From Candidatus Moraniibacteriota bacterium (GTDB taxonomy: Bacteria > Patescibacteriota > Minisyncoccia > Moranbacterales > GWC2-37-73): 64,000 nucleotides of DNA. The notes beneath the pieces were generated by a model that was not told the origin of the DNA, ran no database searches, and was given only the letters and a program-made list of their open reading frames with translations. This document shows, piece by piece, positions 1,597-60,330 of the stretch. A program made the translations under genes and the position numbers. The DNA lies in NCBI GenBank assembly GCA_013336225.1, contig JAAXUC010000004.1, forward strand, positions 32,421-96,420. Direction: 5' to 3'. The first letter of the stretch is position 1; every line of letters begins with the position of its first letter.

Positions 1597-1705
1597 AATT
1601 TTTAATTTTTAATTTTTAATTTTTAATCAAATCTGAATGTCTCAATGTTTAATGATTTAAGCATTTGAAAATTCATTTCAAATTTCAAATTTCAAATTTC
1701 AAATT
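1597..1705. repeat. AT-rich intergenic element: 4x ATTTTTA heptamers, a conserved ~55-nt core (aatcaaatctgaatg..aatgttta..aaacatt hairpin), then 4x AAATTTC heptamers
   Basis: Direct reading; the core recurs at 34119-34172 and 60241-60288, and related modules at 3908-4020 and 41400-41550. Confidence 0.6.
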
Positions 1706-4126: not shown

Positions 4127-4139
4127 CATATGATATTTT

Positions 4140-4170
4140 AAAGACACCCTTTTGGGTGTCTTTAAAATTT
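4140..4170 (+). terminator. rho-independent terminator (aaagacaccc-tttt-gggtgtcttt + A/T tail)
   Basis: Perfect 10-bp stem immediately 3' of tRNA-Tyr. Confidence 0.6.
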
Positions 4171-4178
4171 TATTTGTA

Positions 4179-4400
4179 GTGGGCAGTGAGGGACTCGAAC
4201 GGGTCGAAGTGAGCTAGAAATTTTCAGTAGAAAATTCGCAGCGAACGCCGATGAATGAGAGCGTGCGAGCATTCAGCGCGACCCTGGGCAAGGAGCGAAG
4301 GCGACGCGTAAATCCCTCACTCTTTGTGCAGTGAGGAACTCGAACCGGCAGAAGCGAGCATTAAGCAAAGGCGAGATGGGTGCAGGAATATGACTTAAAT
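4179..4400. repeat. tRNA-Tyr-linked repeat: two inverted copies of the tRNA-Tyr 3' end (4179-4200 and 4332-4356) flanking a conserved core (cgatgaatgagagcgtgcgagcattcagcgc...ggcaaggagcg)
   Basis: 4179-4200 gtgggcagtgagggactcgaac is the exact reverse complement of the tRNA-Tyr T-arm/acceptor 3' end; the core is near-identical to cores at 57657-57700 and 57846-57890. Confidence 0.7.
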
Positions 4401-4494
4401 ACGTGATATTTCAGCTATGGACAAAAATCCAATAAAGCCTTATACTGCTTGATAGTTGCTGATTTCAGTATCTAATCCATATCGCTACCAAAAT

Positions 4495-4567
4495 GCCGTT
4501 GTAGCTCAGTTGGTAGAGCACATCCTTGGTAGGGATGAGGTCTGCGGTCCGATTCCGCACAACGGCT
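4495..4567 (+). tRNA. tRNA-Thr (anticodon GGU)
   Basis: Acceptor GCCGTTG/CAACGGC, anticodon stem CATCC/GGATG with loop TTGGTAG, T-stem TGCGG/CCGCA with atypical T-loop TCCGATT. Confidence 0.8.
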
Positions 4568-4686
4568 CAGGTTTGATAAATTAAAAGATTTTAAAATAAG
4601 TTTCTATTTTCATTGTTTTAAGCCAGAAACAAATGAACATATGAACTAATGACAATTGTATGGCAACAAAGACAAAGGAGAATTTA

Positions 4687-6455: not shown

Positions 6456-6480
6456 ACATTTCATTTTAAATGCAAAATTA

Positions 6481-6510
6481 AAAGCGCTTGAATTTTTCAA
6501 GCGCTTTTTG
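6481..6510 (+). terminator. rho-independent terminator (aaaagcgcttgaa-tttt-tcaagcgcttttt)
   Basis: Perfect 11-bp stem between A-run and T-run, 25 nt after the oxidoreductase stop. Confidence 0.65.
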
Positions 6511-6531
6511 TTGTGAGAGTGTCTTTTGTGA

Positions 6532-6669
6532 TTATATTGCTTTTTGCAACAGTGTTTCAATGTAATCAGTGGTGAAGCAGCAACCATCGCACATGATTTT
6601 GCCAAGAAGGCACTTGTTTACATGTGAGATTATCTCCTTGGCTTCTCTGGCTGACTGCACTCCGACCAT
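6532..6669 (-). CDS. possible small Cys-containing protein (45 aa; MVGVQ...KCLLGKIMCDGCCFTTDYIETLLQKAI)
   Basis: Only non-shadow ORF in the 297-bp gap between two convergent genes. Start trimmed to an internal Met because the longer ORF overlaps the LT gene end. C-terminal CxGCC motif; weak call. Confidence 0.2.
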   Translation of the reverse strand: MVGVQSAREAKEIISHVNKCLLGKIMCDGCCFTTDYIETLLQKAI

Positions 6670-9439: not shown

Positions 9440-9610
9440 GCAAGAATCGTATACATAAAAAATTAAATTTTCATTTTCAAATCACTAGCAGGTGAAAAGA
9501 AAACTAGTTTTATGTATAGATACGCTTGATGACTAAACAACTGAAGGTATTAACATAAAAGTCAATTGTAATACGTTTAGGCTGGCTTGTCAAGTGTTTG
9601 GAGGCATATA

Positions 9611-9639
9611 TTGACTTTTGACTTTAAAAGGAGTATAAT
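9611..9639 (+). promoter_or_regulatory. sigma70-like promoter (TTGACT -17- TATAAT) driving the glyQS T-box leader
   Basis: -35 at 9611-9616, -10 at 9634-9639, 17-nt spacer. Confidence 0.55.
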
Positions 9640-9818
9640 AGAGCTATGTGAGGTTGAGAAGAGGGTGGCTCCTTTTTGCCCTAATTGAGGGAAAATCGAA
9701 CTTGCATGCAAAAGAGATGTCCACCAGAAAAGGTGGAAAGTCGGGTGGAACCGCGAGTCAAGACTCGTCCCGTGCATATCAAACACTTGTTTGGTTTGTG
9801 CAGGATGGGTCTTTTTTA
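9640..9818 (+). promoter_or_regulatory. T-box riboswitch leader (Gly-specific expected) with terminator
   Basis: Canonical T-box sequence AGTCGGGTGGAACCGCGAG at 9738-9756, followed by terminator gtgcaggatgggtc + T7 (9799-9817). Confidence 0.6.
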
Positions 9819-9843
9819 TTTTATGAAAATTATTTATTATAAA

Positions 9844-9910
9844 TTAACGAATTGCGAATTAACGAATTAAAAAATGCATAACAAATCCGTTAATGCGTTA
9901 ATACGTTAAT
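9844..9910. repeat. tandem NCGTTAAT octamers (ttaacgaattgcgaattaacgaattaa ... ccgttaat gcgttaat acgttaat) between the T-box terminator and the glyQS start
   Basis: Direct reading; the same octamer triplet lies upstream of proS at 20831-20855. Confidence 0.65.
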
Positions 9911-12997: not shown

Positions 12998-13059
12998 TTA
13001 CACGTCAAGCACAGTGTGTTTGATTGATGGAAAATCCAGAAAGAAAGGGGGTGAGTTCA

Positions 13060-13173
13060 ATGGGTAAGGGCAGCGGTTCAGGAGGTCATGGAGGCGGCAA
13101 TGCTGGTTCTGGCGGTCAAAGTGGCGGCGGTGGCGGAAGTGCAGGCGGCGGAAGTGGCAGTCGTGGAAAATAG
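13060..13173 (+). CDS. small glycine-rich peptide (37 aa: MGKGSGSGGHGGGNAGSGGQSGGGGGSAGGGSGSRGK)
   Basis: Below the ORF-track cutoff. Strong SD aaagaaagggggtga 7 nt upstream of ATG, and a rho-independent terminator 30 nt downstream. The leader is identical over 15 nt to the leader of the 32839 small ORF. Confidence 0.5.
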   Translation: MGKGSGSGGHGGGNAGSGGQSGGGGGSAGGGSGSRGK

Positions 13174-19001: not shown

Positions 19002-20719
19002 TTTGTCCAAGCTTCGCAGATCCAAAGTTTTTGATCATTGCCACTGATGTTCCAGCTTTGCTTTATTATTCACACATTCCAGCAATCATAATATCATTGT
19101 TGATTGGTTTCTTTGTTTTTTTGAAGGACAGATCGTCTTTGGCTGGTAGACTTTTATTGTTTATTTCATTGAGTTTCTCCCTGTGGACTTTCTTTAGCTT
19201 GATAACATGGACAAATAATAATAGTGAGTTAATTATGCTTGTCTGGTCTTTTTTTGGCGCCCTATATGTATTGCTTTGTATATTATCCTTATACTTCGTG
19301 TATGTATTTATAGATAAGAGAGACGTTTCATTTAAGATAAAAATTATTCTGGGTCTCATATTTTTACCTGCAATTATTTTAGTTTCAACTGCTTTTAATA
19401 TTTTTAATTTCAACTTAACACTCTGTGGCGTTACAAATGAAGGTGTTTATTATACCAATTATTATTACGGAGTTGGCTTTCTGATGTTTCTATGGATTCT
19501 CTTCTTGTTGATTGCTCGTTATAGAAAGGCTGAGAAAGAAATGAAAAAACAAATCATTCTGCTTGGGTTTGGTATTGAATTTTTTCTACTTTCTTTTTTT
19601 GCCAGCGGATATATTGCAAGTCTCTTGACTGAGAATTCATATGATCTTGAATTCTATGGTCTTTTTGGGATGACTTTTTTTATGGCAGTGTTGGCTTTCT
19701 TGATTGTCAAATATAAAGCTTTTGAAATCAAGCTCATTGGCGCTCAAGCATTGGTGGTGTCTCTGATAATTTTGGTTGGCTCTCAATTTTTCTTTGCAAA
19801 AAATCAAACCAGCATCATTTTGACAGGCGTGACAATGGCACTTTCACTCGGATTTGGATACTATTTGATTCGCTCTGTTAAGCATGAAGTTGAGCGCAAA
19901 GAAGAATTGCAGCTTATGGCGGACAAGTTGGCGCAGGCCAATGATGCGCTGCGGAAATTGGACAATGCCAAGACGGAATTCATTTCGATTGCTTCTCATC
20001 AACTCAGAACTCCGATCACAGCCATCAAGGGTTTTGCTTCACTTTTGCTTGAGGGTGCATATGGAGAACTTTCTGAAGGTGTGCATGGAGCCTTGGAAAA
20101 AGTGTATTCTTCCAGTGAACGTTTGGTTTCCCTTATTGAAGATCTGCTCAATGTTTCGCGCATTGAATCTGGACGTATGGTTTTTGCTTTTGAAAAAGCA
20201 ACAGTTGAAAAATTGATCAAAGAGTTGTATGACAACTTCATTTTGATTGCCAAGACCAAGAAATTCTATCTTGATTTGAAGCTGCCGGAAACTCCACTGC
20301 CTGAAGTTATGATGGACTATTCCAAAATTCGCGAATTGGTTTCCAATTTCATTGACAATGCGCTCAAGTATACAGAAAAAGGTGGCGTGACTGTCAAAGC
20401 TGAGCTCAGGGATGAAGGTGTGGTGATTGATGAAAGTGGTTTTGTGATTGAGGGCAAGAAATCTGAATTTGGCAAAGTGGTGCGGGTCACAGTTTCCGAC
20501 ACCGGAATCGGAATTCCGCGCGAAGAAATTCCATATCTTTTCAAAAAGTTTTCACGCGGCAAAGATGTGTCGCGCCTTCATGTTGGTGGAACCGGCCTTG
20601 GGCTCTATGTGGGCAAGGCCATCGCTGAAAACCATCATGGCGCAGTCTGGATCGAATCCGAAGGTGCCGACAAGGGAAGTCGCTTCATCATTGAAATCCC
20701 AGTGGAACACGTCGGGTAG
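18998..20719 (+). CDS. sensor histidine kinase with N-terminal 7TM sensing domain
   Basis: ~280-aa polytopic N-terminus; H-box SIASHQLRTPITAIKGF; N/G1/G2 boxes (NALKYT, DTGIGIP, GGTGLGLYV). Confidence 0.85.
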   Translation: MICPSFADPKFLIIATDVPALLYYSHIPAIIISLLIGFFVFLKDRSSLAGRLLLFISLSFSLWTFFSLITWTNNNSELIMLVWSFFGALYVLLCILSLYFVYVFIDKRDVSFKIKIILGLIFLPAIILVSTAFNIFNFNLTLCGVTNEGVYYTNYYYGVGFLMFLWILFLLIARYRKAEKEMKKQIILLGFGIEFFLLSFFASGYIASLLTENSYDLEFYGLFGMTFFMAVLAFLIVKYKAFEIKLIGAQALVVSLIILVGSQFFFAKNQTSIILTGVTMALSLGFGYYLIRSVKHEVERKEELQLMADKLAQANDALRKLDNAKTEFISIASHQLRTPITAIKGFASLLLEGAYGELSEGVHGALEKVYSSSERLVSLIEDLLNVSRIESGRMVFAFEKATVEKLIKELYDNFILIAKTKKFYLDLKLPETPLPEVMMDYSKIRELVSNFIDNALKYTEKGGVTVKAELRDEGVVIDESGFVIEGKKSEFGKVVRVTVSDTGIGIPREEIPYLFKKFSRGKDVSRLHVGGTGLGLYVGKAIAENHHGAVWIESEGADKGSRFIIEIPVEHVG

Positions 20720-20743
20720 ACTTGCGAAATTAAGAATTAAAAC

Positions 20744-20768
20744 AAAAACAGCTTCTTTAGCTGTTTTT
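20744..20768 (+). terminator. rho-independent terminator (aaaacagcttc-ttta-gctgttttt)
   Basis: Follows the HK stop. Confidence 0.55.
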
Positions 20769-20770
20769 GT

Positions 20771-20799
20771 TTGCAAAAGGCTGAAAATTTGCTATTATA
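20771..20799 (+). promoter_or_regulatory. candidate promoter (TTGCAA -17- TATTAT) for proS
   Basis: Hexamers at 20771-20776 and 20794-20799. Confidence 0.45.
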
Positions 20800-20830
20800 T
20801 CTATATTAAATTGAATTTAGATTTTATAAT

Positions 20831-20855
20831 GCGTTAATTCGTTAATGCGTTAATG
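20831..20855. repeat. tandem NCGTTAAT octamers (gcgttaat tcgttaat gcgttaat) immediately upstream of proS
   Basis: Same motif family as 9844-9910 upstream of glyQS. Confidence 0.65.
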
Positions 20856-20868
20856 AATAATAAGAACA

Positions 20869-22110
20869 ATGAAACAATCACAACTATTCACCAAAACTAA
20901 AAAAGAAGCTCCATCAGATGAGGTGGCCAAGAACGCGCAACTTTTGATTCGCGCCGGTTTTATTCACAAAGAAATGGCTGGAGTGTATGCATATATGCCG
21001 CTTGGTCTGCGAGTGCTGGAAAACATTAAGCGTATTGTTCGCGAAGAAATGAATGCTGTCGGCGGTCAGGAATTGATGATGACAACCTTGCAACCCAAAG
21101 AAATTTGGGAGAAGACTGGTCGTTGGGATGATGCCAAGGTGGATAATTGGTTCAAGACTAAATTGGTTAATGGCACAGAACTTGGAGTGGGACTGACTCA
21201 TGAAGAACCAATTGTTGATGCTGTTAGCAACTATCTCAATTCATACAAGGGCATGCCATTTTCAGTGTATCAAATTCAGAATAAATTTAGAAATGAAAAA
21301 CGGGCCAAGAGCGGAATTTTGCGTGGACGCGAATTTTTGATGAAAGATATGTACACATTTTGCAAAGATCAAGAGCAGCATGAGCAGGAATATGAAAAGA
21401 TTGTGGCTGCATATCATCGTGTTTATGCGCGCCTAGGGTTGGGGGAAATCACATATCGCACCTATGCTGATGGAGGAATTTTCACGCCTCGTTTTAGCGA
21501 TGAATTCCAAACACTCACTGAGGTGGGAGAAGATACGATTTATGTTGATGAGAAAAAACGAATTGCAATCAATGAGGAAATTTTGACGGATGAGAACTTG
21601 AAAAAACTCGGCCTTGATCGCAATGATCTTGTGGCGAAAAAAGGCGTTGAAGTCGGAAACACTTTTCATTTGGAAAGCAAATATACTGACGCATTGGATT
21701 TGTTCTATATTGATGAAAAAGGTGAAAAGCAATCAATTTTGATGGGATGCTATGGAATTGGAGTTAGTCGCTTGATGGGAGTTGTTGCGGAACTTTTTTC
21801 TGATGACAAGGGCTTGGTGTGGCCGGAAAATGTTGCGCCGTTTGCTGTGCATCTTTTGAGTCTTGGACAAGATGAAGAAACTGAAAAAATTTGCATCGAA
21901 CTTGAAAAAAACGGAATTGAAGTTTTGTTTGATGATCGCGACGCACAGGCTGGTGCAAAATTTGCCGACTCAGATTTGATTGGAATTCCATGTCGAGTGG
22001 TTGTTAGTAAAAAATCTTTGGCTGCTGGGGGACTTGAAGTGAAAATGCGAAATGAAAGTGAAAGCAAGATTATGACAGTGGAGGAATTGTTGCAAATGCT
22101 AAAAAAGTAA
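20869..22110 (+). CDS. proS: prolyl-tRNA synthetase, short form lacking the INS editing domain
   Basis: N-terminus MKQSQLFTKTKKEAPSDEVAKNAQLLIRAGFIHK...GVYAYMPLG parallels bacterial ProRS; class II motifs and anticodon-binding C-terminus present. At 413 aa there is no room for the ~180-aa insertion domain. Confidence 0.85.
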   Translation: MKQSQLFTKTKKEAPSDEVAKNAQLLIRAGFIHKEMAGVYAYMPLGLRVLENIKRIVREEMNAVGGQELMMTTLQPKEIWEKTGRWDDAKVDNWFKTKLVNGTELGVGLTHEEPIVDAVSNYLNSYKGMPFSVYQIQNKFRNEKRAKSGILRGREFLMKDMYTFCKDQEQHEQEYEKIVAAYHRVYARLGLGEITYRTYADGGIFTPRFSDEFQTLTEVGEDTIYVDEKKRIAINEEILTDENLKKLGLDRNDLVAKKGVEVGNTFHLESKYTDALDLFYIDEKGEKQSILMGCYGIGVSRLMGVVAELFSDDKGLVWPENVAPFAVHLLSLGQDEETEKICIELEKNGIEVLFDDRDAQAGAKFADSDLIGIPCRVVVSKKSLAAGGLEVKMRNESESKIMTVEELLQMLKK

Positions 22111-22149
22111 TACGTATTGATTTGCGAAAATGTGCTAATATTTAATCAG

Positions 22150-22270
22150 TTATGGGTTAAATTCCCCTCGGCTTGCCGGGTGGAAAGTATCAAGAGAAAT
22201 TCCTCTTGATACCTCGTGCGCTTGCCACGAGGTAATTCATTGTTGTATTGATTGTACACATTTGCTTAAT
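22150..22270 (+). other. three consecutive stem-loops of unknown role (cggcttgccg; atcaagag-aaattc-ctcttgat; cctcgtg-cgcttgc-cacgagg)
   Basis: Direct reading; may be the 5' part (Stem I with AUC specifier) of the ileS T-box leader or a separate structured RNA. Confidence 0.3.
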
Positions 22271-22279
22271 TAAATAAAT

Positions 22280-22510
22280 AATGCTAGTATTATTTTAATA
22301 AAAAGATGAATTAAAAGCGTTTGAGGGAATATCAATCCCGAGCTGCAGGAAGAAATGTTTCAGTATATATGATACTTGTGACAAAATAGAACCTGTCGGA
22401 TAAGTCCGTTATAGCCGTTTGAGTCTGGTTGATATGAGAAATAACCAGAAAATTAAGGTGGCACCACGTTTCCAAGACGTCCTTATATCAAGGGATGTTT
22501 TTATTTTATT
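22280..22510 (+). promoter_or_regulatory. T-box riboswitch leader upstream of ileS
   Basis: T-box consensus AAATTAAGGTGGCACCACG at 22450-22468, followed by a terminator-like hairpin and T-run (22470-22508). An AUC Ile codon sits in a candidate specifier loop (gtATCaagaga). Confidence 0.6.
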
Positions 22511-22543
22511 TAAAATATTTTTAATTGTTTAATTTTAAATTTT

Positions 22544-25483
22544 ATGCAATTCAAGAAAGTAGATGCAAGAAAAAAATATTCAGAAATGGAGAAAGAAATA
22601 ATTCAATTTTGGAAAGATGATGGAACTTTCCAAAAATCCATTGAGCAAAAAAAAAATAATAAATATTTTAGTTTTTATGATGGTCCACCATTTATTACTG
22701 GTGTTCCACATTATGGAACATTGTTATCCTCTATCGTGAAGGATGCTGTTCCTAGATATTGGACAATGAAGGGATATCGTGTTGAGCGTCGATGGGGATG
22801 GGACTGTCATGGTCTTCCAGCTGAAAATATGGTGGAGAAGAAATTGGGAATCAAAAATAAACGTGAAATTGAGGAAAAAGTTGGTATTGCTACCTTTGTC
22901 GAGGAATGCATTAAGGAAACATCTCAAATTGCCTCTGAATGGGAAACTGTTATTGATAGAGTTGGTCGCTGGGTGGAGTTTAAAAATGCATACAAGACGA
23001 TGGATAAGAATTATATGGAATCCGTATGGTGGGCATTTTCGCAGCTTCACAAAAAAGGATTGATTTATGAAGATGTGAGAGTATCGCTATATTGTCCTAG
23101 ATGTTCAACGCCTTTATCAAATTTTGAAATTGCGATGGATAATAGCTATGAGATGGATAGTGATCCTTCAGTATATGTAAAAATGAAGATAAATGGTCAA
23201 GAAAATTCATATTTCTTGGTTTGGACAACAACTCCATGGACACTACTTGCTAATGTGGCCTTGGCTGTTGGCGGCGATATTGACTATGTTAAAGTTAGAT
23301 ATAATGATAAAAATGGCAATCCTGAATTTTTTATACTAGCTAAGAATGTATATGAGAAAAGAAGAGACGATTTTTTCCCTGGTGTTAAGAATCTTGGGCC
23401 AGATGAAGTTCCTCCAGTTGCATCAGAAATAGTTGAAGAATTTAAGGGCAATGATTTATTGATTAAGGAGTATGAATCAATATTCCCACATGAAATCGAA
23501 AACGGATATAAAGTAATTGCGGCAGATTTTGTTACAACTGATGATGGTTCGGGGATTGTGCATATCGCTCCAGCATTTGGAGAGGATGATTTTCAAGTTA
23601 GAAAGTCCAATGATTTACCAATAATCATGAATGTTAATGAAGAAGGTCAATTTACTGATGGACTATGGAGTGGACAGAAAGTTTGGGATGCTAATAATGA
23701 GATAGTTAAATGGCTCAAGGAAAACAATATACTTTTTAAGCGCGAACAGATTACACATAGTTACCCCCATTGTCATAGGTGTCATACAAAGCTTATTTAC
23801 AAAGCACAACCAGCTTGGTATGTGAATGTTTCAAAAATTCGTAAAGATTTGATTGCGGAAAACGAAAAAATAAATTGGTTTCCTGAATTTTTAAAACATG
23901 GTCGTTTTCAAAATGGTATTGAAGGTGCTCCAGATTGGAACATTTCTCGTGATCGTTATTTTGGAACAGCAATTCCAGTTTGGAAATGTGATGAATGTGA
24001 TGAAATGAAAGTTTTTGGGTCCTATGAAGAATTGAAAAATGCCTCTGGTATTGAGCTTGACGACTATCATCGTCCAAAGGTTGACGATGTTACTTTTGCT
24101 TGTGAAAAATGTCACGGTAAAATGAAGAGAATACCGCAAGTTTTTGATTCTTGGATTGAATCAGGCTCAATGCCGTTTGCTCAATTTCATTATCCATTTG
24201 AAAATAAAGAGGTTTTTGAAAAGAGTTTTCCTACGGACTTTATTTCAGAATATATTGCCCAAACAAGAGCTTGGTTTTATGTGCTGCACGTTCTTTCTGT
24301 GGGAATTTTTGGAAAAATAAGTTTCAAAAATGTTGTAACAACAGGAACAATTGCTGGAAATGATGGAAAAAAGATGTCAAAATCACTGGGGAATTATACG
24401 CTGCCCGATGTCGTTTTAGAGCAATACAGCGCTGATGCACTTCGACTTTATCTTTTGTCTTCACCGCTACTCAATGCTCAAAATATTAGTTTTTCAGAGA
24501 AATCCATACAAGATATTCAAAGAAAGGTATTGTCAACGCTTTGGAACAGCTATGCTTTCTTTACTCTCTATGCTGATGTTGATAAGTGGACGCCAAAAAA
24601 TAATGCTGGTTCTCCAGCCGATTCTGATAATCTTTTGGATCTTTGGATCGTGTCTGAGCTAAACAAGCTTATTAGAGAGGTTGATACTAATATGGAAGCA
24701 TACGAATTAGTAAAAGCAATCAGACCCTTTGAGAATTTTGTTGATAACTTATCAAACTGGTATATTCGTCGAAGTCGTAAACGTTTTTGGCGAAGTGAGA
24801 ATGATGATGATAAAGGCAATGCGTATCAAACCTTGCACTATGTGTTAGTTACTCTTTCAAAAATAATGGCGCCATTTGCACCATTTATATCTGAAGAGAT
24901 TTATAAGAATTTAACCGGATTGGAATCTGTTCACTTGGAAGATTTTCCTATTGCTGATGCAAAAAGAATAGATGAGGAACTGAACAACAATATGAGTGAT
25001 TTGCGTGAAATTATAACAATAGGTTTGCAAGATCGCGCAAAAAACAAAATTAAGGTTAGACAACCGTTGAGTGGAGTTTTTCTTGGTCAGAAATATAGTA
25101 AAGTCTTCAATGAAACTATAAACAAGCCAGAGTGGAGTATTATTTTAACAGAAGAGTTAAATGTGAAAGGTGCAACACTTGGAACCGAAACGGAAACTGT
25201 AGCAATTGATTCAAATATTACTGCAGAGCTTAAGCTTGAGGGTCAGGCAAGGGAAATCGTTCGTTATATCCAAGAAATGCGTAAGGAGGCTGGTTATGAA
25301 GTTGATAACCATATTATTGTGGGTTATTCCGGGGTAGAGGAAGTCTTTAATGAATTTGGAGATCTTATATCTAGGGAAATATTAGCGGATAAAATACAAT
25401 CTAATAATTTGCCCGAATATGACTTACAAAAAGAGTTCACATTTGATGAGAAAGTGTTTTCAATTACAATAAAAAAACTGTAA
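22544..25483 (+). CDS. ileS: isoleucyl-tRNA synthetase
   Basis: Class I HIGH-region variant PHYGT, KMSKS (KKMSKSLGN), CP1 editing domain and Zn-binding C-terminus; 979 aa. Confidence 0.95.
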   Translation: MQFKKVDARKKYSEMEKEIIQFWKDDGTFQKSIEQKKNNKYFSFYDGPPFITGVPHYGTLLSSIVKDAVPRYWTMKGYRVERRWGWDCHGLPAENMVEKKLGIKNKREIEEKVGIATFVEECIKETSQIASEWETVIDRVGRWVEFKNAYKTMDKNYMESVWWAFSQLHKKGLIYEDVRVSLYCPRCSTPLSNFEIAMDNSYEMDSDPSVYVKMKINGQENSYFLVWTTTPWTLLANVALAVGGDIDYVKVRYNDKNGNPEFFILAKNVYEKRRDDFFPGVKNLGPDEVPPVASEIVEEFKGNDLLIKEYESIFPHEIENGYKVIAADFVTTDDGSGIVHIAPAFGEDDFQVRKSNDLPIIMNVNEEGQFTDGLWSGQKVWDANNEIVKWLKENNILFKREQITHSYPHCHRCHTKLIYKAQPAWYVNVSKIRKDLIAENEKINWFPEFLKHGRFQNGIEGAPDWNISRDRYFGTAIPVWKCDECDEMKVFGSYEELKNASGIELDDYHRPKVDDVTFACEKCHGKMKRIPQVFDSWIESGSMPFAQFHYPFENKEVFEKSFPTDFISEYIAQTRAWFYVLHVLSVGIFGKISFKNVVTTGTIAGNDGKKMSKSLGNYTLPDVVLEQYSADALRLYLLSSPLLNAQNISFSEKSIQDIQRKVLSTLWNSYAFFTLYADVDKWTPKNNAGSPADSDNLLDLWIVSELNKLIREVDTNMEAYELVKAIRPFENFVDNLSNWYIRRSRKRFWRSENDDDKGNAYQTLHYVLVTLSKIMAPFAPFISEEIYKNLTGLESVHLEDFPIADAKRIDEELNNNMSDLREIITIGLQDRAKNKIKVRQPLSGVFLGQKYSKVFNETINKPEWSIILTEELNVKGATLGTETETVAIDSNITAELKLEGQAREIVRYIQEMRKEAGYEVDNHIIVGYSGVEEVFNEFGDLISREILADKIQSNNLPEYDLQKEFTFDEKVFSITIKKL

Positions 25484-32748: not shown

Positions 32749-32838
32749 TTATTTTTAATGGCATATGAGGTTGTGGATATTCTGAAAAGGTAATATATAT
32801 TGAAAGCAGAATAAATCAAAAAGAAAGGGGGTGATGAT

Positions 32839-32985
32839 ATGCTAGATGGAAATCCTTGGGTTGGGGCAGCTATGAGTGGACACTACAATTACAAAGAAGC
32901 AGCGCCTATGTTTATATTTGCTGTAGTTATTGTTTGTGTGTTGCTTGTTATTGGTGTGGTAGTTTTTTTAAAAGAAAGAAAATAA
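32839..32985 (+). CDS. small membrane peptide (48 aa: MLDGNPWVGAAMSGHYNYKEAAPMFIFAVVIVCVLLVIGVVVFLKERK)
   Basis: Below the ORF-track cutoff. SD aaagaaagggggtga identical to the 13060 ORF leader. Single TM helix followed by KERK; hairpins follow (32990-33015 and 33079-33122). Confidence 0.5.
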   Translation: MLDGNPWVGAAMSGHYNYKEAAPMFIFAVVIVCVLLVIGVVVFLKERK

Positions 32986-47013: not shown

Positions 47014-47018
47014 AAAAG

Positions 47019-47125
47019 TTTATAAAGTTATAAAGTTATAAAGTTTGTAAAGTGGTTATGTTTATTGAGAAATATTTATTTTGATATTTCTTTATGAACT
47101 TTAAAAACTTTAAAAACTTGAAACT
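47019..47125. repeat. opposed tandem repeats: ATAAAGTT x3-4 (47019-47055) and AACTTTAAA x3 (47097-47125)
   Basis: Direct reading; ATAAAGTT tandem copies also at 38562-38584 and 57361-57390. Confidence 0.6.
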
Positions 47126-49317: not shown

Positions 49318-49542
49318 ATGGCCCCAAAACAGGAAAAAGAGTTGATAAAACTCGAAGGAACTATCATTGAAACGCTTCCTAGCACGACGTTTCGAGTGCG
49401 TTTGGATAATGGTCATGAAGTGCTGGCACATATATCAGGAAGAATGAGAGTGAATTATATACGATTGCTTCCCGGCGATCGAGTGCTCATGGAAATGAGT
49501 CCCTACGACCTTACTAAAGGACGGGTAACGCAAAGAATGTAA
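49318..49542 (+). CDS. infA: translation initiation factor IF-1
   Basis: [43 protein letters not shown] matches the IF-1 S1-like fold. Confidence 0.9.
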
Positions 49543-49632
49543 ATAACTAATAACTAAAGACTCACAACTAATGACAGTTGCCAATATGGCAACTGGAGAA
49601 AAAGTTATAAGTAATTGGTGGTAAATAAAAGT

Positions 49633-50201: not shown

Positions 50202-50320
50202 GTAGCTTATTAGGCGTTAGCTTCTTAGCTTGTTAGTCTAATAATGGGGATGATACAGATTATAAACATTTTATAAAAAGCTTAGAAGCTAAAAAGCTAA
50301 AAAGCTAAAACCTGATTAAT
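50202..50320. repeat. duplicated intergenic spacer (agcttattaggcgttagcttcttagctt ... aaaaagctaa x3) between rpsM and rpsK
   Basis: Near-identical spacer at 50797-50881 between rpsK and rpsD; an AAAAGCTAA tandem also occurs at 55065-55095. Confidence 0.6.
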
Positions 50321-50796: not shown

Positions 50797-50881
50797 AGCT
50801 TATTAGGCGTTAGCTTCTCAGCTTCTCAGGAAAACAATTTCCTAAAAAGCTAAAAAGCTAAATAGCTAAAACCTGATTTTT
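50797..50881. repeat. second copy of the ribosomal-operon intergenic spacer (agcttattaggcgttagcttctcagctt ... aaaaagctaaaaagctaaatagctaaaacctgat)
   Basis: Paralogous to 50202-50320. Confidence 0.6.
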
Positions 50882-55051: not shown

Positions 55052-55097
55052 CACTTTTGTATTTTTCTAAGAAGCTAAAAAGCTAAAGCCTGGTAAG

Positions 55098-56633
55098 CTA
55101 GTTTGTTGCAGTGGTTGTTCCGGCTGGGAAGAGGCTTTGCAGGAAGGTGGTGCGCTCAGGAAAGTAAATTGCATGGAGGGCGTTTTGCCCTTGGTCATTT
55201 TTTTCAGTGTAATAGAGTTTGCTGTCGGTGAAGTTGTTCACGAGCAGAGAAGTGTTGTCATTGAGCGACAGGATGTCTGCCATGTTGCGTTTGTCGCGGT
55301 TGTCCAATTCAATCAATTTGATCTTATTGTTATTGGTAAACAAGGCATGCTCGTAGTCTCTGGTCCATTGCACATTTCCAATTTGGTCTGAAAATTTAGT
55401 GATTGACATTAAATCATTTTCATTGCGGGTCGGTTGAACTTCCCATTTACGCACAAAATAGGCTGAGATTTCATGATCATTCCAAAAGAGCAGCTTCTTG
55501 CCATCATCGGAAAATTGGCTTCCCGTGGCATTGCTTGAGAGCTCACGGAAATATGTATCTCCATCTTCGCCCAGATTATAGATGAATAGGTCATTGCTTT
55601 TGTTTAGGAAAACAACGCGATCATCATCATAGACGATGATTTGATATGAGGCATCGCTCATGTTTGCTGGACCAGAAGTGGTGATTTGAGTTGGAAAATC
55701 AGTTGCATCAAAATTGGTCTTATAGACGATTCCTTCTGGCAATTGAAAATAGAAGAGTGCTTTTGGAGAAAGGTCATAGCTGGCGATATTTTCAGCTACC
55801 AATTTTTTGCTGGTCAAATCATTGAGGTCAAAGCGGTAGAGATTGTTGTTGGACATGTAAAAAAGAACGTCTTTGTTTTTTGGATCCCAACGTGAATGAG
55901 AAAGATTATTGTCTCCAGTGAGGTCTCTGATGTTGACGATGTCTTGAGTGTTGTCTGCTGATACAATGAAATAATTTTTTTCGCCGCCTTCATTTTTGAT
56001 TGCGGGAATGATGAGTCGATGAGCTTGGGGCGACCACTCAATGTTTTCCTTGCTGTCATTGGTGAATTTATAATCATCTGCAATAAAAACTTGCCCCATC
56101 TCGAGAGTGCCAGGATTAAAAATTTTCACCAAGAAGTTGTTTTCAATTTGCTGTGAGAAAGCTGCCAAGTTTTTGCGAGGAGAAATGAAGAATTTTCCAA
56201 TGCCAGGGGAGTCGTAATCTTCGCGAGCGTATGAATTTTGAGCTAGGGTAATGTTCCAGAATTCAGTTGAGATTCCGCTGTGCACTGATATTTTTTTTGA
56301 CCAAGCTTGATAGCCTGGAGCTTTGACTTCAACCAAATAGTTTCCTGGCACAATACCTCCGATATGATATGAATTATTGAGACGATTGAATGATTTTGAG
56401 GGCATGATCACGCCATCAATATAGACATCAACTTGTTGAGGTGTTGTTTTCAGGGAAATTGAACCGGCATAGACAAAAATTCCATTTTGAAAATTGAAAC
56501 GGTAACCGAAGGCATAGCCAATAATGGTGGCTGAGGTAAGCCAAAAAAGGACAACTAGTGTCCAAAAAAAGATCGCTTTGGGTATTTCAGGATTGTTCAT
56601 TTGGCAGTAGAAATTCGAAAGGCTCTTGGCCAA
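55098..56633 (-). CDS. membrane-anchored PEGA-domain protein with large beta-rich C-terminal region
   Basis: N-terminal TM helix; PEGA-like VDVYIDGVIMPSKSF...GNYLVEVKAPGYQAWSKKISVHSG. Confidence 0.5.
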   Translation of the reverse strand: MAKSLSNFYCQMNNPEIPKAIFFWTLVVLFWLTSATIIGYAFGYRFNFQNGIFVYAGSISLKTTPQQVDVYIDGVIMPSKSFNRLNNSYHIGGIVPGNYLVEVKAPGYQAWSKKISVHSGISTEFWNITLAQNSYAREDYDSPGIGKFFISPRKNLAAFSQQIENNFLVKIFNPGTLEMGQVFIADDYKFTNDSKENIEWSPQAHRLIIPAIKNEGGEKNYFIVSADNTQDIVNIRDLTGDNNLSHSRWDPKNKDVLFYMSNNNLYRFDLNDLTSKKLVAENIASYDLSPKALFYFQLPEGIVYKTNFDATDFPTQITTSGPANMSDASYQIIVYDDDRVVFLNKSNDLFIYNLGEDGDTYFRELSSNATGSQFSDDGKKLLFWNDHEISAYFVRKWEVQPTRNENDLMSITKFSDQIGNVQWTRDYEHALFTNNNKIKLIELDNRDKRNMADILSLNDNTSLLVNNFTDSKLYYTEKNDQGQNALHAIYFPERTTFLQSLFPAGTTTATN

Positions 56634-57536: not shown

Positions 57537-57549
57537 CATATGATAATTT

Positions 57550-57580
57550 AAAAACACCCTTTGGGGTGTTTTTAAATTTT
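57550..57580 (+). terminator. rho-independent terminator (aaacaccc-tttg-gggtgttttt)
   Basis: Immediately 3' of tRNA-Lys; same architecture as the tRNA-Tyr terminator. Confidence 0.6.
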
Positions 57581-57586
57581 TATTAG

Positions 57587-57970
57587 AGGCACAGAGGGAT
57601 TCGAACGGGCAGAAGCTAAGCAAATTGTTTTTCAGCAGAAAAGCAATGCGGCGTGCGTCGATGAATGCGAGGAATACGAGCATTCAGCGCTGCCCAGGAC
57701 AAGGAGCAAGTGAGCGACGGCGAACGAGCGACGCGTGACAGACTGTGCCCACAAAGAGAAAAATCCCTATTGGGGATTTTTTTGTCTTTGTGCACAGAGG
57801 GATTCGAACCGGCAGGAGTGAGATATGAGCGAAGGCGAATAATCGAACGCCGATGAATGAGAGCGTGCGAGCATTCAGCGCTGCCGCGGGCAACGAGCTG
57901 TCAGCAGACAGTGAGGCGGAAATCCTTTGTCTAAATTGTACACACAGAGGGATTCGAACGGGCAGGAGTT
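57587..57970. repeat. tRNA-Lys-linked repeat array: three inverted copies of the tRNA-Lys 3' end (57589-57612, 57790-57815, 57939-57966) interleaved with the conserved core (cgatgaatg[a/c]gag..cgagcattcagcgctgcc)
   Basis: cacagagggattcgaac is the reverse complement of GGTTCGAATCCCTCTGTG; cores at 57657-57700 and 57846-57890 are near-identical to the core at 4247-4290 in the tRNA-Tyr locus. Confidence 0.7.
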
Positions 57971-59540: not shown

Positions 59541-59641
59541 AAAGTTGAATAGTTAAGTGGCTGCTTAGTTAAATAGGCAATACACTTAAATTTATCTAAC
59601 TAATTAACTAAGAAACTAATTAACTAATTTACTACGTATCT

Positions 59642-60204: not shown

Positions 60205-60330
60205 GCTTCGCGAATTTTGAATTATGAATTTTGAATTTCGAATAAAATCAGAATGACAAAATGTTTAAAAATTCAAACATTAAAAATTAAAAAATTGATT
60301 CAAAATTAAAAATTAAAAATTAAAAATTAT
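60205..60330. repeat. conserved AT-rich intergenic element (cgaattttgaattatgaattttgaatttcgaat + aataaaatcagaatgacaaaatgtttaaaaattcaaacatt + AAAAATT x4)
   Basis: Core matches 1625-1680 and 34119-34172; the 5' module matches 3924-3950. Confidence 0.6.

Follow-up and report, generated by a model that had tools for sequence, protein, structure and literature searches.

A CGTTAAT array before proS in a Moranbacteria genome and the dispersed class of start-codon-proximal repeats to which it very probably belongs

The DNA analyzed here, referred to as the window, is a 64,000-nt stretch of a Candidatus Moraniibacteriota genome. Its ProRS matches a protein from a Candidatus Moranbacteria MAG at 100% identity, and a Logan assembly contains the locus too. 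Within it, proS occupies 20869..22110 on the plus strand and encodes a 413-aa prolyl-tRNA synthetase of the bacterial type without the INS editing domain, scoring 416 bits against TIGR00409 (ProRS without editing domain; cut-off 306.7). A terminator-like hairpin lies just 3′ of the upstream histidine-kinase gene at 20740..20772, and was called on the minus strand by the scan. Next to it, a sigma-70-like promoter, TTGCAA-16-(TG)TATTAT, spans 20771..20798 on the plus strand. Between this promoter and the proS start codon, the plus strand at 20831..20854 reads gCGTTAATtCGTTAATgCGTTAAT, that is GCGTTAAT-TCGTTAAT-GCGTTAAT, leaving a gap of 14 nt to the ATG at 20869. The initial annotation had placed a triple NCGTTAAT array at just this distance, and its reading is borne out. 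Tandem Repeats Finder describes the array as period 8 with 3.6 copies. The following 14 nt (20855..20868, plus strand) hold a degenerate fourth unit, GAATAATA, and an A-rich spacer without a Shine-Dalgarno (SD) motif; a TAAT-phased unit is found 3′ of the arrays in all aligned copies.

The promoter had been proposed with a 17-nt spacer. The consensus match stands, with the spacer corrected to 16 nt, and 32 nt separate the −10 hexamer from the array. Relatives keep the promoter in the form TTGCAA/TAYNAT. Because this conserved promoter is upstream of the array, transcription is expected to start ~25 nt before the array, which puts the array in the 5′ UTR. The predicted proS leader is ~64 nt long and is mostly array.

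Promoter and terminator scans of the proS and glyQS regions found no sense-strand promoter or terminator inside the arrays. An Rfam cmscan of 20700-22560 at E ≤ 1 placed zero families within the proS leader (20700-20868), and a whole-window Rfam scan at gathering thresholds returned tRNAs only. When folded, the proS leader yields −12.2 kcal/mol with z = −1.6, which is not significant, and a stable RNA hairpin was rejected on that ground; nor is the leader unusually unstructured, because the array can self-pair. Only the start-proximal arm of the element is present at proS, with no clear inverted partner, and a decayed 5′ arm upstream of the array was rejected since the resemblance is weak only. 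A phase-variation (contingency) repeat does not fit well either: the units differ at the N position (G, T, G), an independent assembly (L115) has an array identical to that of the window, and the repeat is placed 3′ of the −10 hexamer and 5′ of the ATG, outside the promoter spacer and the ORFs.

The window has one other array of this kind, before the dimeric-type glycyl-tRNA synthetase gene (NF003211, 614 bits) that starts at ATG 9927. This array, cCGTTAATgCGTTAATaCGTTAAT at 9887..9910 on the plus strand, is composed of CCGTTAAT-GCGTTAAT-ACGTTAAT and ends 16 nt before the ATG; the earlier pairing of the proS and glyQS arrays as one repeat family holds. The initial annotation overlooked two things here, an inverted arm and the T-box setting. 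The inverted arm, ATTAACGA-ATTGCGA-ATTAACGA-ATT with an irregular 7-nt middle unit, lies at 9843..9868, and a loop or spacer at 9869..9886 separates it from the array, both on the plus strand. Further upstream on the same strand, a T-box leader is called at 9608..9775 with 37.2 bits and E = 1e-6, short of the Rfam gathering score, and a promoter match (TTGACT-17-TATAAT) lies at 9611-9639. The terminator stem of the T-box leader and the U-run after it extend to ~9815, leaving the whole glyQS element downstream. The sense strand of the glyQS element folds at −19.4 kcal/mol with z = −3.2 against shuffles.

Incidentally, ileS also has a T-box leader, at 22311-22487 (RF00230, 57.6 bits, E = 2e-11, gathering score 93). 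Rfam gathering thresholds seem to pass over T-boxes of CPR, these two (37 bits for glyQS and 57.6 bits for ileS) being examples.

The pattern CGTTAATNCGTTAATNCGTTAAT, allowing up to 2 mismatches, hits two sites in the window, those at proS and glyQS, vs none in 100 dinucleotide shuffles. These two loci also hold 8 of the 11 CGTTAAT heptamers in the window. Arrays of other units are far from rare, however, when any short unit is admitted. Tandem Repeats Finder, set to 6-10-nt units and at least 2.5 copies, reports 25 arrays in the 64-kb window, 22 of which are intergenic, though non-coding sequence makes up 16% of the window. Segment-wise dinucleotide shuffles gave 1.66 ± 1.15 intergenic arrays (maximum 7). 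For eleven arrays, the distance from the end of the array to a plus-strand start codon is 0-15 nt.

At least five unit families recur in the window. Their units are CGTTAATN in family A, to which the proS and glyQS arrays belong; AAAGTTTAT/AACTTTAAA, and also CTTTATAA, in family B; TTAGCTTN/AAGCTAAA in family C; GAATTTT/AAAAATT, with a conserved centre of ~35 nt, in family D; and TAACTAAT in family E. The common build is 3-9 tandem copies of an A/T-rich 7-9-nt unit, often as two inverted arms around a variable loop, and the elements fill the space between a stop codon or promoter on the 5′ side and a point 7-16 nt short of the following start codon. Nine elements are two-armed, beginning 1-16 nt after a stop codon and ending 7-14 nt before the next ATG, except for the frr-rseP element, which ends 42 nt before it.

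A family C two-arm element consisting of a TTAGCTTN arm, a loop and a AAGCTAAA arm occupies the rpsM-rpsK spacer (50204..50310), and a second family C two-arm element the rpsK-rpsD spacer (50797..50871); each ends 10 nt from the next ATG. A family B counterpart, with a AAAGTTTAT arm, a loop and a AACTTTAAA arm, lies at 47015..47123, 8 nt before ATG 47132. A family D element made of an AATTTTT arm, the conserved centre and an ATTTCAA arm lies between rpsB and tsf (1597..1705), and another family D element between frr and rseP (60212..60329). Single arrays are found as well: the family E array, TAACTAAT × 4.8, ends 7 nt before the frr ATG (59597..59634); an ATTTTAA × 3.9 array abuts the ileS start codon downstream of its T-box leader (22517..22544); and an orphan family C arm (55067..55087) stands 10 nt past the stop codon of the minus-strand gene 55098-56633. 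All of these are given on the plus strand. Two further arrays, AACAAATG (4628-4652) and AATAACT (49542-49572), precede small unlisted ribosomal-protein ORFs, which by eye are putatively rpmG (L33, near 4684) and rpmJ (L36, near 49635).

Operon-internal elements are present in the rpsB-tsf, rpsM-rpsK-rpsD, scpA-scpB and pyrH-frr spacers, where rpsB was named by a Pfam Ribosomal_S2 match and scpA and pyrH from operon order rather than by a scan. Elements in such positions must be transcribed. One copy of family D is flanked by tRNA genes on both sides, and no start codon follows it. As would be expected of multi-copy repeats, contigs assembled for this organism from short reads break at arrays: the ends of Logan contig L247 and the 3′ end of L248 fall within (AAAATTA)n, (AATTTTT)n or family D arrays. 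In ~5 kb of sequence added by the organism's other contigs, no further family A copy was found. Inspection of the flanks by eye gave no consistent target-site duplications.

Near two tRNA genes, a different kind of intergenic feature was noticed. In the stretches 4127-4420 and 57537-57700, tRNA-Tyr and tRNA-Lys respectively are each followed by a terminator-like hairpin, after which the 3′ end of that same tRNA recurs in inverted orientation (gtgggcagtgagggactcgaac and gcacagagggattcgaac), leading into GC-richer sequence. ARAGORN and Rfam called nothing at these copies, which could be minus-strand structured RNA or an integration remnant.

SD motifs are scarce in the window. Only 7 of 56 genes carry an SD-like motif (AGGA, GGAG or GAGG at −22 to −4), and all seven are genes without an array. 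Two small ORFs, at 13044-13173 and 32824-32985, share the same strong SD-like sequence AAAGAAAGGGGGTGA in this otherwise SD-poor genome; one product is a 37-aa Gly-rich peptide (MGKGSGSGGHGGGNAGSGG...) and the other has 48 aa with a hydrophobic stretch. As for stop codons, TAA occurs in all three frames within the last 40 nt before the ATG in 7 of 11 array leaders vs 1 of 24 array-less ones. Some families contain no stop codons (ATTTCAA) or have stops in two frames only, and a three-frame stop pad as a universal property was rejected, as it is seen in those 7 of 11 arrays only.

The distribution of the array was examined in relatives. The proS ortholog set comprises 80 metagenomic loci at 59-88% protein identity, ~78 of them with upstream sequence, to which two more relatives, L202 and L203, were added. 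A CGTTAAT array upstream of proS is absent in the ~78 metagenomic orthologs with upstream sequence, and L202, which at 90% identity is the nearest relative found, and L203 lack it too, making 0 of ~80. The conservation expected of a proS element by the initial annotation is therefore not seen. What close relatives keep is the terminator and the promoter, with other short tandem repeats between the −10 hexamer and the ATG. CTTTAYRAA-type repeats fill the proS leaders of L202, L116, L118-121, L123, L130 and L203, and GAAGCTAAT × 4, which is C-like, fills that of L122. The same orthologous position is thus occupied by family A in the window, by family B in most relatives and by a C-like repeat in L122. 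In CPR genomes at a greater distance, proS is preceded by a plain AGGAG Shine-Dalgarno motif, without repeats.

Conservation is limited before glyQS as well, as one of five relatives (L199) has the array there. In L199 (85% identity) the same two-arm element is found in the same place after the T-box terminator, and in L196, L197, L200 and L203 there are other inserts or none. The spacer from the T-box terminator to the glyQS ATG carries different inserts in each relative. A GC-rich palindrome, CCTGCCTRCCGGYAGGCAGG, lies between the T-box terminator and the glyQS start in both L197 (9926-9945) and L203 (2301-2322), being another small repeat type at the same permissive glyQS site in two different relatives.

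L199 carries family A three times within 19.5 kb, ahead of glyQS and in the atpF-atpH and atpH-atpA spacers. These elements end 12-21 nt before an ATG. The two in the ATP synthase genes end 12 and 14 nt before their start codons, and one of them is inverted. In other CPR genomes, arrays in the CGTTAAT orientation precede ugd, murG, tuf, a GT4 glycosyltransferase gene, gatD and efp, and arrays in the ATTAACG orientation precede rplX (L100) and pheT (L058). Since the same array precedes many unrelated genes, family A is not specific to aminoacyl-tRNA synthetases (aaRS). In sense transcripts, the single-arm copies would read NCGUUAAU at proS and AUUAACGN in the rplX and pheT leaders of L100 and L058, and since both orientations occur, a strictly sequence-specific reader of the RNA is disfavoured.

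High array densities are confined to loci with a ProRS at least ~80% identical to that of the window; in CPR genomes at 75% ProRS identity or less, the density is near zero. The triple pattern as such matches more widely, at no fewer than 114 loci in the genome collection and at 22 in viral contigs. Three scrambled octamers of the same composition match 9, 5 and 7 viral loci, however, and the matches outside CPR are mostly perfect (TCGTTAAT)n microsatellites. The cross-phylum matches are therefore largely a generic simple-sequence background, and we rejected their spread as a sign of function or of a universal binding site. What is informative is the set of CPR copies that combine heterogeneous N positions with a common architecture.

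Two observations in other genomes concern the way in which units are combined. In Chitinophagaceae/Ferruginibacter (Bacteroidota; L014, L023, L051, L055, L089 and L107), CGTTAAT arrays are followed by a loop and ATTAACG arrays, forming intergenic two-arm elements with heterogeneous N positions in the opposite arrangement. In L114, a Moraniibacteriota locus, ATTAACGA × 3 is followed directly by AATTTCG × 3.5 at 4518-4582 and 6476-6539, and unit families can accordingly adjoin within one element.

Evidence bearing on selection was obtained by setting the elements against synonymous sites of the adjoining genes. Between the window and L199, 61 of the 69 columns of the glyQS element (88%) are identical, and all 35 canonical heptamer positions (five heptamers) are unchanged. 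Fourfold-degenerate sites of glyQS are 39% identical, composition alone giving an expectation of 28.5%. The changes affect one N position, the loop, the spacer that follows the array and the irregular middle unit, where GCG becomes ATG. For proS, the leaders of L202, L116, L120/L130, L121 and L123 keep 2.5-4.5 CTTTAYRAA units at fourfold identities of mostly 30-50%. Because the elements are conserved while synonymous sites are near saturation, the repeat leaders appear to be maintained by selection, and as judged from such comparisons this would be purifying selection. The swapping of families at proS fits either a function independent of the exact unit or switching between family-specific readers.

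Folding was less uniform. Families B and C fold with z of −2.1 to −6.0. Families A and B fold better as the sense strand and family C as the antisense strand; a consistent sense-strand advantage from G-U pairs, having been considered, is not seen. Arm complementarity co-varies at the level of families (A-E). Within a family, no compensatory changes between paired arms were found, and deviant units are uncompensated in the L199 atpA, L102 and L068 copies, while the seemingly irregular arm arises in part from ascertainment, as the search asked for three perfect CGTTAAT units. The inverted-arm architecture is a property of the class, and its source could be either a generating mechanism or selection.

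From these results, the proS array is very probably a one-armed family A copy of a clade-specific class of dispersed intergenic repeats, and one that took the place of ancestral family B repeats in the lineage of the window. The best overall explanation, which we put at somewhat below an even chance, is that this dispersed class acts as a transcribed leader or intercistronic module. Three other explanations were weighed against it.

The class could be a selfish or mutational by-product without host function, generated by replication slippage and template switching or by MITE/REP-like spread into permissive intergenic sites, with start and stop codons nearby simply because insertions are tolerated there. 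A clade-restricted burst, rapid family turnover with swaps at orthologous sites, uncompensated arm mismatches and assemblies that break at arrays would all follow, as would the glyQS T-box terminator-ATG spacer with its differing inserts per relative, including the palindrome of L197/L203. Similar octamers also form background × 3 arrays, at 5-9 viral loci when scrambled vs 22 for CGTTAAT. A functionless repeat would not be expected, however, to stay 88% identical in the orthologous glyQS element when synonymous sites are near saturation, or to be kept as family B in the proS leaders of five saturated lineages. Heterogeneous N positions are unlike recent slippage, no target-site duplications are seen by eye in the flanks, and the arrays end consistently 7-16 nt before the ATG. 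We consider this explanation unlikely, while giving it the most weight among the alternatives.

Alternatively, the array could be a DNA operator, in which a protein binds 8-bp-phased CGTTAAT heptamers cooperatively, direct or inverted, and represses or roadblocks transcription. Candidate binders would be ribbon-helix-helix repressors that read short tandem boxes (MetJ, omega, ParG). Operators of these proteins are tandem 7-8-bp boxes overlapping the promoters of a defined regulon, with a cognate ribbon-helix-helix gene, and met-boxes have an 8-bp period. The 8-bp period of the array, its position just downstream of the proS promoter and the presence of arrays in both orientations and as inverted pairs agree with this explanation. 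So does the perfect conservation of heptamers between orthologous copies, as N positions and irregular units vary. The likeness to MetJ, omega and ParG operators is one of box phasing only, with short boxes in direct and inverted arrangement and 3-4 units here; unlike those operators, the proS array begins 32 nt past the −10 hexamer, many other copies are operon-internal, and conservation does not follow the gene. With at least five unrelated unit families, one small CPR genome would have to encode an equal number of cognate proteins. Many copies sit inside operons or between tRNA genes, a long way from promoters, the array is missing at orthologous genes, orthologous leaders exchange unit family, and no candidate regulator was identified. 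The operator explanation is accordingly quite improbable.

The remaining explanation is that of the initial annotation, a cis-element specific to the class IIa synthetase genes proS and glyQS that would co-regulate them as operator or UTR site for a common factor; both window copies do precede aaRS genes at similar distances (14 and 16 nt) and the glyQS copy is conserved in L199, but with the array in 0 of ~80 proS orthologs and 1 of 5 glyQS relatives, with the same element before atpH, atpA, tuf, efp, murG, ugd, gatD, rplX and pheT elsewhere, and with this being one of many array families in the window (2 of 22 intergenic arrays), it can hardly be correct. While the placement of the array in a 5′ leader below a conserved promoter stands, a shared operator or UTR site tying proS to glyQS is not supported, and the specific hypothesis of a dedicated proS/glyQS regulator is largely refuted.

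Several known repeat systems resemble the class in part. The REP/BIME and ERIC sequences of enterobacteria, imperfect palindromes of between some tens and about 130 nt, are non-coding and dispersed, and occur within transcription units in either orientation; their sequence but not their location is conserved between species, and they are implicated in mRNA stability and translation. The elements here are likewise multi-copy, dispersed, inside transcription units and in either orientation (two family A loci in the window and three in L199). Unlike REP/BIME and ERIC, their arms are tandem 7-9-nt units, and the proS copy is one-armed. Cyanobacterial STRRs are heptamer repeats. LSSRs (Mrazek et al. 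2007, as cited in PMC4679880) are presented in the citing paper as a statistical class of long simple sequence repeats. Common to LSSRs, STRRs and the window arrays are a lineage-sporadic excess of mostly non-coding tandem repeats of 5-11-nt units, the prominence of heptamers and slippage as a likely source. Unlike LSSRs, which as described there have no defined position relative to start codons, the window arrays have heterogeneous N positions, recurrent families and inverted arms.

Among known systems, the class most resembles the heptamer direct repeats (TAACTGA) of marine Beggiatoaceae, also found in some Cyanobacteria and Bacteroidetes (MacGregor 2015, PMC4679880). A Beggiatoaceae genome contains 169 TAACTGA sets, mostly a few nt upstream of start codons without a ribosome-binding site (RBS), including sites at rpsD and pheS and in the interiors of ribosomal-protein operons; translational regulation via S1, Csp or CsrA is a proposal only (PMC4679880). 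Both systems consist of short tandem direct repeats (2-6 copies) in many sets per genome, almost all intergenic and a few nt upstream of RBS-less starts, in ribosomal-protein operons and at translation genes such as rpsD and pheS. In both, the forward orientation puts stop codons in all frames, and a translational role is proposed. The window arrays show the intergenic excess and the proximity to RBS-less starts that mark TAACTGA-type repeats and LSSRs, without a single dominant unit. Instead of the one dominant heptamer of TAACTGA, at least five families of 7-9-nt units occur here, with many inverted-arm, hairpin-like elements reaching from stop to start, in a CPR host. Family swapping at orthologous leaders and the comparative evidence for purifying selection are further differences. 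A search of a literature library gave no account of such elements in CPR, and none on the repeat string or on Moranbacteria tandem repeats.

How a transcribed leader or intercistronic module might act can be outlined tentatively. It would work at the RNA level, largely independent of the exact sequence, to support SD-independent expression. RNA-level action, involvement of the ribosome or S1 and a function of the hairpin are the parts that we infer. The array would be transcribed as most of the ~64-nt proS leader, and would be a generic, interchangeable RNA module in a genome with few Shine-Dalgarno motifs. Its A/U-rich octamers, at about −38 to −15, could be a standby or loading platform for the 30S subunit, like the A/U-rich enhancers of the S1 type. 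The repeats would also put UAA in all three frames just before the AUG, making a stop pad that is independent of frame. Where a complementary arm is present, as in glyQS and the operon-internal copies, an interrupted hairpin could bring the stop and the start together and mask the platform, with the outcome that initiation is coupled or limited, or that mRNA ends are protected. On action as RNA or as DNA, the evidence is mixed. The operon-internal copies, the conserved promoter ahead of the array, the scarcity of SD motifs and the exchange of families at proS favour the module. Against it, the proS leader is not unusually unstructured, the strand that folds better differs between families, deviant units are uncompensated, single-arm arrays occur in both orientations, one family D copy precedes no start codon, and some families do not supply stops in all three frames.

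Consistent with such a module, bS21 is often lost in Parcubacteria and CPR bS1 proteins have 3-4 domains only (PMC9297842). A more far-reaching proposal, which we regard as speculative and improbable as a whole, is that a Moranbacteria clade has largely given up SD pairing and uses interchangeable tandem-octamer cassettes (A-E) as plug-in modules for translation initiation or coupling. Their reader would be either a dedicated RNA-binding factor or the reduced CPR ribosome, with its 3-4-domain bS1 and frequent lack of bS21, and the cassettes would be copied between genes and genomes. If this is true, a gene such as proS could be rewired from one cassette family to another.

As a practical matter, the arrays break short-read assemblies and may be mistaken for gene-specific operators. 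With this class, start-codon-proximal repeats, a little-understood phenomenon described earlier from Beggiatoaceae and cyanobacteria, are seen in a further phylum, and comparison with relatives adds evidence of constraint. In CPR bacteria, regulatory repertoires are minimal and ribosomes unusual, and the start of translation on SD-less mRNAs is poorly understood. Dense modular repeats lie at the initiation regions of core genes in the window, those of aminoacyl-tRNA synthetases, ribosomal proteins, EF-Ts and RRF, and relatives add EF-Tu, EF-P and ATP synthase subunits to the genes preceded by arrays. The arrays thereby offer a concrete handle on SD-less gene expression in CPR.
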